From the IMG/VR virus record IMGVR_UViG_3300045988_001437, positions 1 to 5,728 of that record: a stretch of 5,728 nt of DNA. One strand, 5' to 3'. The notes beneath the pieces were generated by a model. That model had not been told where the DNA came from. It worked only from the letters and a program-made list of their open reading frames with translations, and made no database searches. Below are positions 118 through 5,728 of the stretch, piece after piece (the first letter of the stretch is position 1; each line of letters starts with the position of its first letter). This DNA is from a virus. The translations under genes and the position numbers were made by a program.

Positions 118-282
118 TTATCGGTTTTCGTATTCTTTCAGTTTTTCACAGATTGCGTCTGTCCATTCATCGTCCATGTCGTATTCTTCTTGTATTTCGT
201 CTCTGTCTGTGCTTCTCCATCCGCCATCGTAAAGAGCTGCTGCACAATCTTCAATATTTTCTTCGTAGAAATTGTATTTCAT
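118..282 (-). CDS. 54-aa highly acidic small protein, MKYNFYEENIEDCAAALYDGGWRSTDRDEIQEEYDMDDEWTDAICEKLKEYENR. Function unknown. It forms an autonomous expression cassette.
   Basis: Hand-translated. ATG at 280-282 on the minus strand with the SD GAAAGGAGAA 8 nt upstream. It carries 18 Asp or Glu against 6 Lys or Arg. Its own consensus promoter lies upstream at 323-351, and a hairpin plus T14 lies downstream. Confidence 0.6.
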   Translation of the reverse strand: MKYNFYEENIEDCAAALYDGGWRSTDRDEIQEEYDMDDEWTDAICEKLKEYENR

Positions 283-312: not shown

Positions 313-345
313 CTACACCTTTATTATACACCTTTTATATACACT
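313..345 (-). repeat. Three tandem copies of a 13-bp unit GTGTATAWWAAAG, each carrying a GGTGTA or GTGTA core, overlapping the -10 and spacer of P1. An operator-like array.
   Basis: Plus-strand tacacc at 314-319 and 327-332, and tacac at 340-344, on an exact 13-bp register. Confidence 0.55.
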
Positions 346-351
346 TGTCAA
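323..351 (-). promoter_or_regulatory. Promoter P1, a consensus sigma70 promoter. On the minus strand it reads TTGACA, then 17 nt, then TATAAT.
   Basis: The reverse complement of 321-352 is cTTGACAagtgtatataaaaggtgTATAATaa. The -35 element lies at 346-351 and the -10 element at 323-328, both on the minus strand. It drives the acidic ORF, whose start lies about 40 nt downstream. Confidence 0.6.
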
Positions 352-406
352 GCACTTTTTTGCCTTTGCTAGGAAGCGCTATCAGACTCCCGCCCGCAGG
401 CGCTCC

Positions 407-437
407 AAATGATAAGAGACCGGCTTTCGCCGGTCTC
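407..437 (-). terminator. Intrinsic terminator candidate downstream of Rep. It is a 9-bp perfect stem GAGACCGGC / GCCGGUCUC with a GAAA tetraloop, followed by UUAUCAUUU.
   Basis: Plus-strand arms lie at 416-424 and 429-437 with the loop at 425-428. On the minus-strand RNA the loop is GAAA, a GNRA loop, and the U-rich tract corresponds to 407-415. The element lies about 64 nt after the Rep stop. Confidence 0.5.
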
Positions 438-500
438 AGACTATTGGCGCGCTTCCGTTAGACTTTGTGTCAGCTGCCACACTACTTTATTTAGCAAATT

Positions 501-1616
501 TTATACTTCTTCTCTTATGAGTTTTTTGAATTTTTCTTGATTTTTCTTGTCTTTTAGGTCATAATATTCTTGCATGTTCAAGCCGGTCTGTCTCAACTGA
601 GCAAACAGTGCATCATTTGCGATTCTTCGCCGTTCGCGTTTGATGGCTTTCAGTTCTTCAGATTCGGCTTTTACTATTGTGTCTTCTATCGTCTCGCTTT
701 CTGCTTCAGATAATGGTTTGCTGTTTGAGTGTTCCAGATCAAACAGTTTATCAAAATATCGTGGTGGTTTTGTTCTCCTTCCGTTTTTCAGCTGGATTTC
801 ATCTTTTGCATAGATTTCATCTTTGTGTTCCTCATAGTATTGCATTCCGATTGCAGGATTTTTGCTCATCATGCAGCGTTCTGGTAATACTCCGAGCTCT
901 TCATAATATTTTTTGGAGTCCTTGCCATAAATTTTTTTTGTCGTATATCTGGCAGTGTATGCCATGTTTTTCCATTCTGCTGGTCCTACTACTACATGAC
1001 CCATACCCCACAGTTTTGTGAGCCACTCGACATTGTAGTATCTGAATCCGTTTTTCTGCTTGTAGATTTTCAGTTCTTCCGGTTTTATTGGCAGATCGTA
1101 CACGATCGCATGATAATGCGGTCTGTGTGTCTGACTTCCGTATTCTCCTGCTTGGTAGTACATCAGTTTTCCGGTATTTCTTTCATGGTATTCTAACCAG
1201 CGTCTTAGGCGTTTCCAGAATTTCTGCATGTCCTCATAGTTTAACGTTAAGTTCTCTATGATTATTTCGCCGGTTCTTTTGTTAACTCCCAAACCTTGAT
1301 TGTAAGACCACGGTACGTGGTCCTCATCGTATGTAAGCGTTAAAAACCACGCATTATCGTGATATGGCAGTTCCATTTCCATTCTGTTTGCCCAGCTGCT
1401 TGCATTTTGCATCTTACAGCCGGCACAGTGACCGCATGGTAGCAGCTGAGCGTTTTCGTCTTTCAGCTTTCTCAATAGCTTTTTTTCTAGGCTTTCGTTC
1501 CAAAACGGTCCCTCAAAGTTCTGTTGGTTGTTGTGCTTCTTTCCTGCCAGTAGGTATTTTTTCAGGCTTGTTATTTCGCCGTCTGCGAACCTTACTAATG
1601 GCTGTGTGCACCCCAT
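501..1616 (-). CDS. VP4: Replication initiation protein VP4 (371 aa), an HUH rolling-circle endonuclease of the phiX174 gpA superfamily.
   Basis: Motif 1 is FLTLTYD. Motif 2 is RPHYHAIVYD, the HUH motif. Motif 3 is MAYTARYTTKKIYGK, a YxxRYxxK motif carrying the catalytic Tyr pair. The N-terminal region contains the Cys cluster CGHCAGC. Confidence 0.93.
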   Translation of the reverse strand: MGCTQPLVRFADGEITSLKKYLLAGKKHNNQQNFEGPFWNESLEKKLLRKLKDENAQLLPCGHCAGCKMQNASSWANRMEMELPYHDNAWFLTLTYDEDHVPWSYNQGLGVNKRTGEIIIENLTLNYEDMQKFWKRLRRWLEYHERNTGKLMYYQAGEYGSQTHRPHYHAIVYDLPIKPEELKIYKQKNGFRYYNVEWLTKLWGMGHVVVGPAEWKNMAYTARYTTKKIYGKDSKKYYEELGVLPERCMMSKNPAIGMQYYEEHKDEIYAKDEIQLKNGRRTKPPRYFDKLFDLEHSNSKPLSEAESETIEDTIVKAESEELKAIKRERRRIANDALFAQLRQTGLNMQEYYDLKDKKNQEKFKKLIREEV

Positions 1617-1639: not shown

Positions 1640-1685
1640 TCAGTGGGCCCCAATAACTCTTCTTGATGTTATTGGGGCCCACTGA
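1640..1685. other. Perfect 18-bp inverted repeat TCAGTGGGCCCCAATAAC / GTTATTGGGGCCCACTGA with a 10-nt loop, lying between the RHH54 stop and the Rep start.
   Basis: The arms at 1640-1657 and 1668-1685 are exact reverse complements and GC-rich at the stem base. On the minus strand the hairpin ends 23 nt upstream of the Rep ATG, next to GGTGAA-N3-GGTGAA direct repeats (plus-strand copies at 1625-1630 and 1634-1639). Confidence 0.75.
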
Positions 1686-1729
1686 CACAAAATTTCTCGT
1701 TTCCTTCGTTTTCCTCATGGATTTTTGTT

Positions 1730-1894
1730 TCAATCGTTGAACCCTAAGAGTTGAGCATACATGTCGATTGCGTCCCTGATTATGTCGCTGTCGATGTATT
1801 TTTCCCCTGTTTTTCTGCTTTCTATGTATCTCAGTTCGTCCAGCTGTTTCTGTGTGAGGTTAACGTTTACTCTTTTTGCTACTTGACTTTTCAT
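1730..1894 (-). CDS. 54-aa CopG-like ribbon-helix-helix protein, MKSQVAKRVNVNLTQKQLDELRYIESRKTGEKYIDSDIIRDAIDMYAQLLGFND.
   Basis: Hand-translated because it is below the ORF-track cutoff. ATG at 1892-1894 on the minus strand with the SD AAAAAGGAGT 7 nt upstream. The segment KRVNVNLTQKQLDELRYIESRKTGEKYIDSDIIRDAIDMY aligns residue for residue in pattern with CopG KRLTITLSESVLENLEKMAREMGLSKSAMISVALENY. Confidence 0.6.
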   Translation of the reverse strand: MKSQVAKRVNVNLTQKQLDELRYIESRKTGEKYIDSDIIRDAIDMYAQLLGFND

Positions 1895-1929
1895 GATTAT
1901 ACTCCTTTTTAGGTAAGGCGTTCGATTCG

Positions 1930-1948
1930 TACACCCATAATATACACC
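1930..1948 (-). repeat. Two GGTGTA direct repeats 13 bp apart, flanking and overlapping the P2 -10 element. They are homologous to the P1 array.
   Basis: Plus-strand tacacc at 1930-1935 and 1943-1948. Confidence 0.5.
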
Positions 1949-1967
1949 TTCTTTCTGTGTTTGTCAA
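1939..1967 (-). promoter_or_regulatory. Promoter P2. On the minus strand it reads TTGACA, then 17 nt, then TATATT, immediately after the VP2 stop. It drives the RHH54 and Rep operon.
   Basis: The reverse complement of 1937-1968 is gTTGACAaacacagaaagaaggtgTATATTat. The -35 element lies at 1962-1967 and the -10 element at 1939-1944. It shares AAGGTGTATAWT-N3-GGTGTA with P1. Confidence 0.55.
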
Positions 1968-2911: not shown

Positions 2912-4525
2912 TTAGATTGTATCGATGCCTGGGATGCTATAGATAGGCATCGGTCTTGTCCATGCCTGACTGTAATAGAAGTTACAGATAAACTGGTGAG
3001 AGTTCGAGCTCTGTACCGCGAGAGTTCTGTCGATGTTTTCTGTTCCTTCTTTGATCCAGCTGCTGGACAGGGTAGGAAGTGCGTCGTATTTGTCCGCATA
3101 GTGCCATGCATCCAGCGTCTGCGCGTAGGTGCTGCGCATTTCGGACGTTACCATGTTTGTGCGGTACCTGTAGTCGGCCCAGGCTTCCTGATAGCCGAAT
3201 ACCTCTTCATCCTTTGCCTGTCCCTGTGCATAAATCTCCTGATTGAGCACTGCTTGTTCACCGAGGTTTGCTAACATTGGGTCATAGTAGGAAAAGCGAG
3301 TGCTGCGCGTCCAAAGTCTGCTCAGACCCTGCTGATAGCTGTGATCTACTCGGATAGCTGCCAGACCGAGGACAAAACCATGCTCGGTCGCGCTGTATGT
3401 GCACATATTCCGGCTTAATGTTGTCATGGAATAAGCACCGGTGTTGCCCTGCGGACTCGTGCTGTCCGTGCTGGATGTCTGAATTACCTGATTGACGTTG
3501 ATCGGCATTCTGTGCCCGCCGATGTACTCAGACCGGTCAAGACGTGCATCCGGACTTGTCACACCCCAAGCGCCTTTCAGGATTTCTTTGTATCGCGTGC
3601 CGGTTCTTGCATCACGTTCGAAGATGTGCTGCACTGCGATTGCCTGCCGCAAGTCGTTGATTGTCGCAGTTGTTGCGCTTCCGAGGTCTGCCATCAAATA
3701 GCCGCTTGTTGCTACTGCAGTTGTTGAGGCCGTTGTTGCTTTGACTGACTCTTCAATTTTTCCGTTCGGCTGGTTGTAGTAGAAGTTTTGCATTGCTCTG
3801 CTTTCGCTTCCGCTGTTCAGCATGTTTCCATCTATGTCACATACTCCTATTTTTGCATTTCCCAGCATTGGGATCGTTACTGGCTCTGTCGATTTCTGCA
3901 GAGACGGCAGGCAGCTGGTGAAATAGTCCTTGTACTTACAGACCTTCAGCGGCAGTCCGCCCGCTTCTGCGTCCGTCAGGTTCGTTCCCGTGTTTACGCC
4001 GGTCGTGGTCGTGTCGTCCATGCTTTGGGTTACAGGTTGCTGCAGGTTTTCGTCTCTGAACCATTCGTTATATACCTTGCAGTACGCTCTGAAAGGCAGA
4101 CTGTTCACCTTCAGGCCGCTCACGCCTGTCGGGATTCCGAAGTAATCCGCCAGAGTCCCAACGTTCCAGCCGCCTTCTGGTGCGGTCGTTACCGGAGTTG
4201 TGTATTCGGTCGGTTCTGCCCAGAAAGTGCTGTCGTTCTGGCCCATGAGGTTTTGAAAGTGCTTCCAGAGCAGTCTGCTCGGAATGAAGAAAAAGTAGAA
4301 GTCCATGTATGCATTGTCCATCACCGGATACAGCGGTGTGGCCATGCGAACCAGTGCGTTCAGGTTGATCTTGAAGGTATCTGCAGGCAATACCTCGTCC
4401 AAATAGATCGGTACAAGGTCGCCTTCGTTCATGGTCGTCAGCAGATTGAAATCTCGCTGGAATTTCGCTCTTCGGATTTCCGCATGAGGTACCTGTGCAT
4501 AGTGCTGCTCACTGTTTCTGTTCAT
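2912..4525 (-). CDS. VP1: Major capsid protein VP1 (537 aa), Microviridae F-protein family of the gokushovirus type.
   Basis: The N-terminus YAQVP...[13 protein letters not shown]...[17 protein letters not shown]...[12 protein letters not shown]...[12 protein letters not shown] matches the conserved gokushovirus VP1 signature FAQVP..R..F..TTF..G.L.PI..DEVLPGDTF..ARMATP..P.MDN..FFVP.RL.W. The SD GAGGT lies 9 nt upstream of the ATG. Confidence 0.95.
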
Positions 4526-5351: not shown

Positions 5352-5567
5352 TTATTCCTTTCCCAGTTCGTAGATCTGTTTTGTGGTGATGTTATCGAGT
5401 CCGTAGCGCAGCAGCGCTCTTGTCACTTTCGATCTCGGGATTTCCAGTGCCTGGCCGATGTCTTCGATTTCGTCCAGCATTCCGATTTCTATTCCGATCG
5501 CAAATCGGGTTTTCAGTTTTTTCGGATCCTTCTGGTTGAATCGTTCTCTGATGTGGCCGCTGCTCAT
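5352..5567 (-). CDS. 71-aa ribbon-helix-helix (CopG/Arc/MetJ-like) DNA-binding protein with a basic N-terminal tail.
   Basis: ORF track entry. The sequence TRFAIGIEIGMLDEIEDIGQALEIPRSKVTRALLRYGL fits a beta-strand, helix A, a P-R-S-K turn and helix B. Compare the CopG segment GLSKSAMISVALENY. The SD is GAGGGGG. The start overlaps the upstream gene stop as ATGA, which suggests translational coupling. Confidence 0.55.
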   Translation of the reverse strand: MSSGHIRERFNQKDPKKLKTRFAIGIEIGMLDEIEDIGQALEIPRSKVTRALLRYGLDNITTKQIYELGKE

Positions 5568-5683
5568 AGTCTGATTCCCCCTCTGCTCGGTTTCGGATTG
5601 ACGTTGATCTTTTTGGTTTTCTTTGCGGTGTTGGTGAAGATTTTCTTGTCGATCTTCGGTTTAACGGTCTTGCGGTATGCCAT
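5564..5683 (-). CDS. Small, highly basic 39-aa protein, MAYRKTVKPKIDKKIFTNTAKKTKKINVNPKPSRGGIRL. It resembles the Microviridae J or gokushovirus ORF8 DNA-binding and packaging peptide.
   Basis: ATG at 5681-5683 on the minus strand, preceded by a strong SD AAGGAGGTG with 6-nt spacing. 40 codons, 11 Lys and 3 Arg. The stop TGA overlaps the ATG of the next gene as ATGA. It is below the length cutoff of the supplied ORF track and I translated it by hand. Confidence 0.6.
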   Translation of the reverse strand: MAYRKTVKPKIDKKIFTNTAKKTKKINVNPKPSRGGIRL

Positions 5684-5728
5684 GATACCACCTCCTTTTT
5701 CTCTCATTTTACCAAAAAAAAAAAAAAC
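5654..5728. repeat. Second copy of the 75-nt terminal redundancy, matching 1-75.
   Basis: Exact identity to window positions 1-75. Confidence 0.9.

Follow-up and report, generated by a model that had tools for sequence, protein, structure and literature searches.

Paired promoters with boxes at 13-bp spacing and a candidate ribbon-helix-helix repressor in a clade of gut gokushoviruses

In the textbook picture drawn from phiX174, microvirus genes are expressed from constitutive promoters and the virus encodes no regulators. Proteins of the ribbon-helix-helix (RHH) type act as obligate dimers whose two-stranded sheet enters the major groove at repeated operator subsites. Among RHH repressors, omega repeats are 7 bp and MetJ repeats 8 bp long, and omega also binds inverted repeats. 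Arrays of direct repeats bound by omega are described for 2bnw. The sites of CopG from plasmid pMV158 lie one helical turn apart on a single DNA face, and four dimers cover about 45-50 bp including the -35 and -10 boxes (PMC2724298). A global microvirus survey (PMC9239249) makes no mention of regulators, promoters or DNA-binding accessory proteins, and in our full-text literature searches gokushoviruses were nowhere linked to RHH proteins, repressors or regulated promoters. The comparisons presented here suggest a repressor-controlled early gene circuit in a gut gokushovirus, a member of a family that has been thought free of regulators.

The window, by which we mean the whole stretch of DNA analysed (5728 nt), is a single circular genome with a terminal redundancy of 75 nt (1-75 / 5654-5728), and therefore represents a circularly permuted complete genome of ~5653 nt. 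All of its long ORFs lie on the minus strand. The structural and replication genes identified are the major capsid protein VP1 (Phage_F, E 1e-163), the scaffold VP3, VP5, the pilot VP2 and VP4/Rep, and the closest annotated relatives are gokushoviruses from human gut and pig faeces. An Rfam search of the window gave sub-threshold noise only. Along the coding strand, a promoter P2 is followed by RHH1, a stem-loop, Rep, a terminator-like hairpin, a promoter P1, an acidic ORF, a hairpin with a T14 run and the structural genes. The individual features are:

346..351, minus strand: -35 hexamer of P1, TTGACA
340..345 (about -29..-24), minus strand: P1 box 1, AGTGTA
327..332 (-16..-11), minus strand: P1 box 2, GGTGTA, overlapping the -10 hexamer TATAAT at 328..323
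314..319 (-3..+3), minus strand: P1 box 3, GGTGTA, with the predicted transcription start G316 inside it
118..282, minus strand: acidic ORF of 54 aa, AAALYDGGWR family, the cargo of P1
70..107, minus strand: terminator-like hairpin and T14 run at the end of the P1 unit
1962..1967, minus strand: -35 hexamer of P2, TTGACA, immediately 3' of the VP2 stop codon
1957..1960, minus strand: P2 box 1, inverted (ACAC), 13 bp upstream of box 2
1943..1948, minus strand: P2 box 2, GGTGTA, overlapping the -10 hexamer TATATT at 1944..1939
1930..1935 (-3..+3), minus strand: P2 box 3, GGTGTA, with the predicted transcription start G1932 inside it
1918..1921, minus strand: P2 box 4, inverted, ACGC in the window, 13 bp after box 3 and also the 3' arm of an inverted repeat with box 3
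1730..1894, minus strand: RHH1, predicted ribbon-helix-helix protein of 54 aa, first gene of the P2 operon and candidate repressor
1690..1641, minus strand: stem-loop between RHH1 and Rep
501..1616, minus strand: VP4/Rep, HUH rolling-circle initiator, second gene of the P2 operon (Pfam PF23343, E 4e-16)
416..437, minus strand: terminator-like hairpin between the Rep stop codon and P1
5567..5352, minus strand: second RHH-like protein, 71 aa, in the structural operon

The composite TTGACA-N11-AAGGTGTATAWT-N3-GGTGTA has exactly two matches in the window, at 351..314 and 1967..1930, both on the minus strand as the original prediction had stated, and none of 200 dinucleotide shuffles contained a match. 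The two promoters had also been described as homologous and near consensus. They are indeed the top sigma-70 matches of the window, with scores of 12/12 for P1 and 11/12 for P2 and spacers of 17 bp, and their gapless alignment is identical at all motif positions from the -35 hexamer through box 3. Both lie on the coding strand 5' of an ORF with a Shine-Dalgarno sequence. Their hexamers of the TTGACA/TATAAT type, 17 +/- 1 bp apart, oriented upstream of a gene and conserved in the clade, are those of sigma-70/sigma-A promoters. The assignment of the acidic ORF to P1 and of the RHH-Rep operon to P2 is supported. GGTGTA occurs five times in the window against 1.19 expected, four of these within the P1 and P2 sites, and TRF independently called an array of 13-bp period at 314-344 (2.4 copies, 88% matches). 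The three GGTGTA units ascribed to P1 do form a 13-bp array, but the first of them reads AGTGTA. P2 has the two GGTGTA units ascribed to it, but its 13-bp register also takes in two inverted boxes, ACAC at 1960..1957 and, in degenerate form, ACGC at 1921..1918. From the rule Y(-1)R(+1), 7 nt after the -10 hexamer, we infer that transcription would begin at G316 in P1 and at G1932 in P2; a start near box 3 is predicted also because, in analogous promoters of bacteria, the distance from RGTGTA to the beginning of riboswitch and T-box leaders is 2-14 nt.

Two further elements of the window were observed in passing. A candidate third promoter, for the structural genes, was seen by eye at ~45-60 on the minus strand (repeated at 5698-5713). 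It has a canonical extended -10 element, TGGTAAAAT, without a -35 hexamer and without GGTGTA boxes, and lies immediately after and overlapping the T14 run of the P1-unit terminator; in the relative L057 an extended -10 element after a terminator is arranged in the same way. From the Rep stop codon towards P1, the intergenic DNA (365-470, minus strand) contains a long-range complementarity, GGAAGCGC...GCGCTTCC, enclosing the hairpin 437..416. This region gave a sub-threshold Rfam match only, and might serve as an origin for the complementary strand or as a structure at the 3' end of a transcript.

Rep searches returned 53 related genomes with Rep identities of 51-95%, which together with the window form a clade of 54; 21 more distant microviruses (L117-L137, Rep identity 30-41%) were added. 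Promoters, phased conserved boxes and gene order can be read directly from these genomes. The P2-type promoter is present in every clade genome and has the consensus TTGACA-(a.acagAAAagA)-GGTGTATAWTATG-RGTGTA-nnAATCrnACACyT. The P1-type promoter is found in about half of them, with the consensus cTTGACA-AGTGTAT-nnnnnA-GGTGTATAATAAA-GGTGTA-GAAAGGA. The promoter core of the clade is TTGACA-N17-TATAAT with an A-rich upstream region. A census that ignored the boxes and used the -35 and -10 hexamers only found 101 coding-strand sites scoring at least 10/12, and 88 of these are P1 or P2 promoters with RGTG at -16..-13 and with GGTGTA, AGTGTA or GATGTA at -3..+3. Most of the 13 sites left over are intragenic, and they match weakly.

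The register of the boxes is equally regular. Among 27 unique P1 sequences GTGT is found at offset -13 (box 1) in 23, at 0 in all 27 and at +13 in 23, and ACAC at +26 in 7. Among 43 unique P2 sequences ACAC is found at -13 (box 1) in 22 and at +26 (box 4) in 41, and GTGT at 0 and +13 in all 43. The information content over 26 unique P1 sequences is 1.96 bits per position for the -35 hexamer, 1.86 for box 1, 2.0 for box 2 and 1.66 for box 3, with 1.22 in the spacer; in P2 it is weak for box 1 (0.86 bits), 1.83 for box 3, 1.75 for box 4 and 0.88 further downstream. The array is larger and more regular than first noted, with up to four boxes from about -29 to +15, the outer ones inverted in P2. 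Neither RHH1 nor boxes were found in the 21 distant microviruses, including two (L124 and L136) from the window's own metagenome; the promoter of L124 is a canonical TGTGnTATACT.

The order P2-RHH1-Rep is kept in 54 of 54 genomes, in each of which an ORF of 53-79 aa starts 48-54 nt after P2 box 2. RHH1 and Rep are probably co-transcribed, because no T-tract terminator lies between the two genes. The claim that this operon encodes an RHH protein is supported by structure prediction: an AF2 model built on a 60-sequence alignment (pLDDT 81.7) has an extended N-terminal strand and two helices, the beta-alpha-alpha protomer fold in a monomer prediction, and the sequence has an N-terminal strand in which polar residues, presumed to face the DNA, alternate with hydrophobic ones, as well as a conserved helix-2 N-cap. 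On this model RHH1 is a newly recognised member of the predicted CopG-like RHH fold. Its conserved parts are the N-terminal K-R-x-N-x-N-L-T and the helix-2 start S-D-I-I-R; R8, N10, L13, S36 and R40 are invariant and K7, N12, T14 and D37 are conserved to at least 90% in A1, with helix 1 and the C-terminus freely variable. The conserved residues are written in varied synonymous codons (five for R8, six for L13, both serine codon families for S36) and therefore reflect selection at the protein level. The DNA-reading strand of RHH1 is under purifying selection.

Sequence databases recognise RHH1 poorly. Pfam RHH_1 matched 4 of 20 members, sub-threshold only (best E 0.006), and a PDB profile search, a Pfam scan and a PHROGs scan gave no significant match. 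In hhalign the RHH1 profile aligned end to end and in register with pMV158 CopG (E 1e-4), and gave no alignment with Arc. The family comprises 352 clusters and is currently unannotated; the best 120 of the 352 are on contigs of ~5.9 kb or less without annotation. RHH1 and the boxes are both invariant and do not covary, and the variant N12F in L034 is accompanied by standard boxes. One of the two RHH proteins of the genome had been put forward as the probable regulator, and the comparison favours RHH1, which, unlike the second protein, co-occurs with the boxes throughout the clade. The second protein (5567..5352) aligns with CopG in the RHH register (hhalign probability 66%), is unrelated to RHH1 and is present only in the 11 closest genomes, and is therefore unlikely to be the cognate binder of clade-wide boxes. 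Its ORF overlaps the stop codon of a 47-aa basic ORF upstream.

Near-identical P1 sequences are found in genomes whose Reps are just 51-67% identical, and P1 therefore behaves as a portable cassette. In ~14 genomes its cargo is the acidic AAALYDGGWR protein of ~52 aa (motif AAALYDGGWR...DEW..AICEKLKEYE), and in others it is unrelated small ORFs, a set of which was seen at the cargo positions in L027-L073. The acidic ORF has no Pfam or PHROG match and is a candidate early accessory or host-interaction protein. Several P1 copies are rearranged: exactly one 13-bp unit, -10 included, is missing in L032 (5300-5360), truncated copies are found in L048 (5500-5560) and L063 (5380-5420), and P1 of L065 (5411-5460) contains AGTGTATAATAAA twice in identical form and reads AGTGTA at each of its three boxes. 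These rearrangements are repeat-mediated.

Almost every one of the 54 clade genomes has the stem-loop (1690..1641 in the window) between the RHH1 stop codon and the Rep start. The stem pairs perfectly over 12-19 bp and its sequence differs among lineages, with compensatory double changes at 13 of 16 predicted pairs and one G-U cell only, a pattern suggestive of a structure at the DNA level. There is almost no variation in the loop, (A/G)TCAAGARG, or in the 5' flank, TTGTGTCA. Read on the strand antisense to the genes, the loop becomes TCTTCTTGATG and contains CTTGAT, the core of the phiX174/pC194 nick site. The stem-loop is a candidate for a replication origin or for a control element of Rep expression.

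Our preferred reading, to which we would give an even chance, is that P1 and P2 are paralogous sigma-A/sigma-70 promoters lying under one type of operator array, RGTGTA/TACACY boxes at an exact 13-bp spacing from about -29 to +15, and that both would be repressed by a protein bound there. The array would cover the -10 element and the transcription start. Its likely binder is RHH1, the first gene after P2 and presumably co-transcribed with Rep; as RHH1 dimers accumulate they would fill the boxes and exclude RNA polymerase, checking Rep expression by autoregulation and silencing P1 simultaneously. P1, as a portable cassette, could thereby subject variable accessory genes to RHH1 control. We infer both the binding of RHH1 to the boxes and the repression that would follow from it. 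The position of box 4 at the exact 13-bp register fits a fourth protein site. We offer more tentatively the idea that RHH1 is a clade-specific master repressor reading GTGT boxes every 13 bp in either orientation, turning ~86 degrees from site to site, which would provide an early-to-late switch and Rep homeostasis, with P1 as a recombining plug-and-play cassette that may have reached an inovirus.

The geometry of the array sets limits to this proposal. The original prediction had spoken of a fixed helical spacing and of the classic layout of RHH operators. A period of 13 bp amounts to ~1.24 helical turns, so adjacent sites are rotated by ~86 degrees and do not all lie on one face of the DNA; the layout is therefore not the classic one, in which CopG sites are one helical turn apart on one face (PMC2724298). 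Cooperative same-face binding in the manner of CopG or Arc by a 54-aa protein is unlikely at this period. The co-occurrence of RHH1 and boxes is moreover confounded by shared ancestry.

Copies of the boxes outside the clade argue against the RHH1 reading. The central two-box composite is also found in large phages and at 34 bacterial loci, mainly in Clostridia (Ruminococcus, Oscillospiraceae) and also in Streptococcus, Acholeplasma, Patescibacteria and others; bona fide chromosomal promoters among the latter belong to c-di-GMP-I riboswitches and one T-box leader. No RHH1 homologue was found at the non-microvirus loci by tblastn or hmmsearch, no microvirus genes occur at the bacterial loci, and the genome scan did not identify the host. 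In addition L018, an inovirus-like contig of 4.6 kb with a G2P-type Rep and Zot, carries TTGCAA-GGTGTATAATAAAGGTG-TATAAT...GGTGTA directly after its Rep gene (3440-3500, minus strand). The unit AAGGTGTATAATA is repeated perfectly there, three times in tandem, with -35 hexamer and boxes arranged as in P1, and RHH1 was not found in the 4.6 kb of the contig. This array could stem from promoter-cassette exchange between ssDNA phages of one host. A literature search for the string GGTGTATAAT found unrelated primers only. The chromosomal and large-phage copies raise the question whether a protein of a Clostridia-type host, either a global regulator or a nucleoid protein, binds the boxes and is exploited by the phage. 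We consider this improbable: the matches span unrelated phyla and genes (c-di-GMP riboswitches, a T-box leader) with no coherent regulon, their number is roughly that expected by chance for promoter contexts, and these copies lack the outer boxes. The spacing itself is specific, with 25 matches at 13 bp against 4 and 3 when the downstream box is shifted by +/-1 base, and with the -35 hexamer in register in five independent large-phage promoters at 13 bp and in none at the shifted spacings. Recurrence in unrelated promoters only at 13 bp could mean that the boxes are intrinsic to the promoter, as remnant 13-bp duplications of the GGTGTATAATAAA '-10 module' without a dedicated repressor, retained for tuning RNA polymerase binding, spacer geometry or start-site choice. 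The perfect tandem units of L018, the identical units of L065 and the loss of exactly one unit in L032 point the same way, but 45 other strong sigma-A-type promoter matches at the same loci show different preferences, with TG at -15/-14 in 42% and A rather than G at +1 (28 vs 11), and with GTG at -15..-13 in just 9% and GTGT at the start in just 4%. The product of their positional frequencies is ~7-fold over uniform. On this rough estimate the scattered database matches are compatible with chance among promoters, but chance or positional preference cannot explain the invariance of the boxes across the clade. Outer boxes are lacking in 36 unrelated promoters. A generic RNA polymerase preference, at only ~7-fold and favouring TGn and A(+1) over GGTG/GTGTA, was discarded as the principal cause. 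No base-specific contact of RNA polymerase is known at -29..-24, but P1 box 1 is more conserved than the adjacent spacer, and within each unit conservation is limited to the RGTGTA part. We regard remnants of a promoter module as an unlikely account of the boxes.

Two other explanations concern nucleic acid structure and replication. Box 3 could pair with the inverted box 4, and the resulting stem-loop, in the leader of the mRNA or in viral ssDNA, would control stability or translation, the likeness to box 2 being only historical. In its favour 91% of cells pair, one covarying pair (AU 16, GU 13, GC 9) has zero mismatch, a result reached in 2 of 500 shuffles, and a U-G wobble occurs at another pair in the window and L002. 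The 'loop' AATC is nearly invariant, however, most P1 promoters retain box 3 without a partner, and boxes 1 and 2 are left unexplained, which makes this stem-loop a highly improbable explanation. As the predicted G(+1) falls within box 3, most of the 5' arm of the hairpin would be untranscribed, and a 5' hairpin in the mRNA, with its single covarying pair and its conflict with the predicted start site, was set aside as the weaker explanation. The boxes might instead be iterons of the HUH Rep, coupling origin recognition to rep repression in the style of geminiviruses and other CRESS-DNA viruses. Direct repeats do lie in the rep promoter, and a G2P-family Rep goes together with a box array in the clade as well as in L018, but these Reps are related at the superfamily level only (E 0.12), for which reason L018 was rejected as support. 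There are two separate arrays per genome, ~230 nt (P2) and ~1.3 kb (P1) from the only conserved stem-loop (1690..1641), whereas the repeats of CRESS viruses and geminiviruses immediately flank the origin stem-loop. We know of no iterons for microvirus Rep proteins, and hold this explanation to be the least probable of those weighed.

If RHH1 does repress P1 and P2, Microviridae would have their first described circuit dedicated to transcriptional regulation, and abundant gut gokushoviruses would regulate their replication and accessory genes like rolling-circle plasmids. The circuit would be directly testable, as it consists of one 54-aa protein and two 50-bp DNA targets, and would provide compact regulated promoter parts for Clostridia-type hosts. 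What appears novel is a putative RHH-autoregulated type of rolling-circle rep operon in viruses of a family from which no regulators are known, together with the unusual geometry of the presumed operator and a second, portable promoter.

The promoters of the clade resemble canonical sigma-70/sigma-A promoters in their TTGACA-N17-TATAAT core and A-rich upstream region. They differ from extended -10 (TGn) promoters in having no TG at -15/-14, the register being shifted to GTG at -15..-13, and from comparable promoters that prefer A(+1) in their predicted start at G. The RHH repressors Arc and Mnt of P22, SvtR of SIRV1 and ORF56 of pRN1 have short palindromic or inverted-repeat operators, unlike the arrays described here. 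The repeat-array binding that we propose for RHH1 is like that of omega, but omega of pSM19035 reads contiguous 7-bp heptads (WATCACW) which have no sequence relationship to the boxes, and here the period is 13 bp and the sequence between boxes is variable. The nearest counterpart is copG-repB under Pcr of pMV158. In both cases a small RHH gene (45-54 aa) comes first and the HUH rolling-circle initiator next behind one promoter, with co-transcription assumed here from the sequence, and in both the operator, a candidate one in the clade, overlies the core promoter with about four sites. The CopG sites are inverted TGCA boxes centred on the -35, on one face and with a 13-bp pseudo-symmetric element at the -35. 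The clade boxes instead read RGTGTA, are mostly direct, have a 13-bp period and are centred on the -10 and the start. Unlike pMV158, the clade also has a second promoter, P1, with a matching array, and its replicon is a virus rather than a plasmid.
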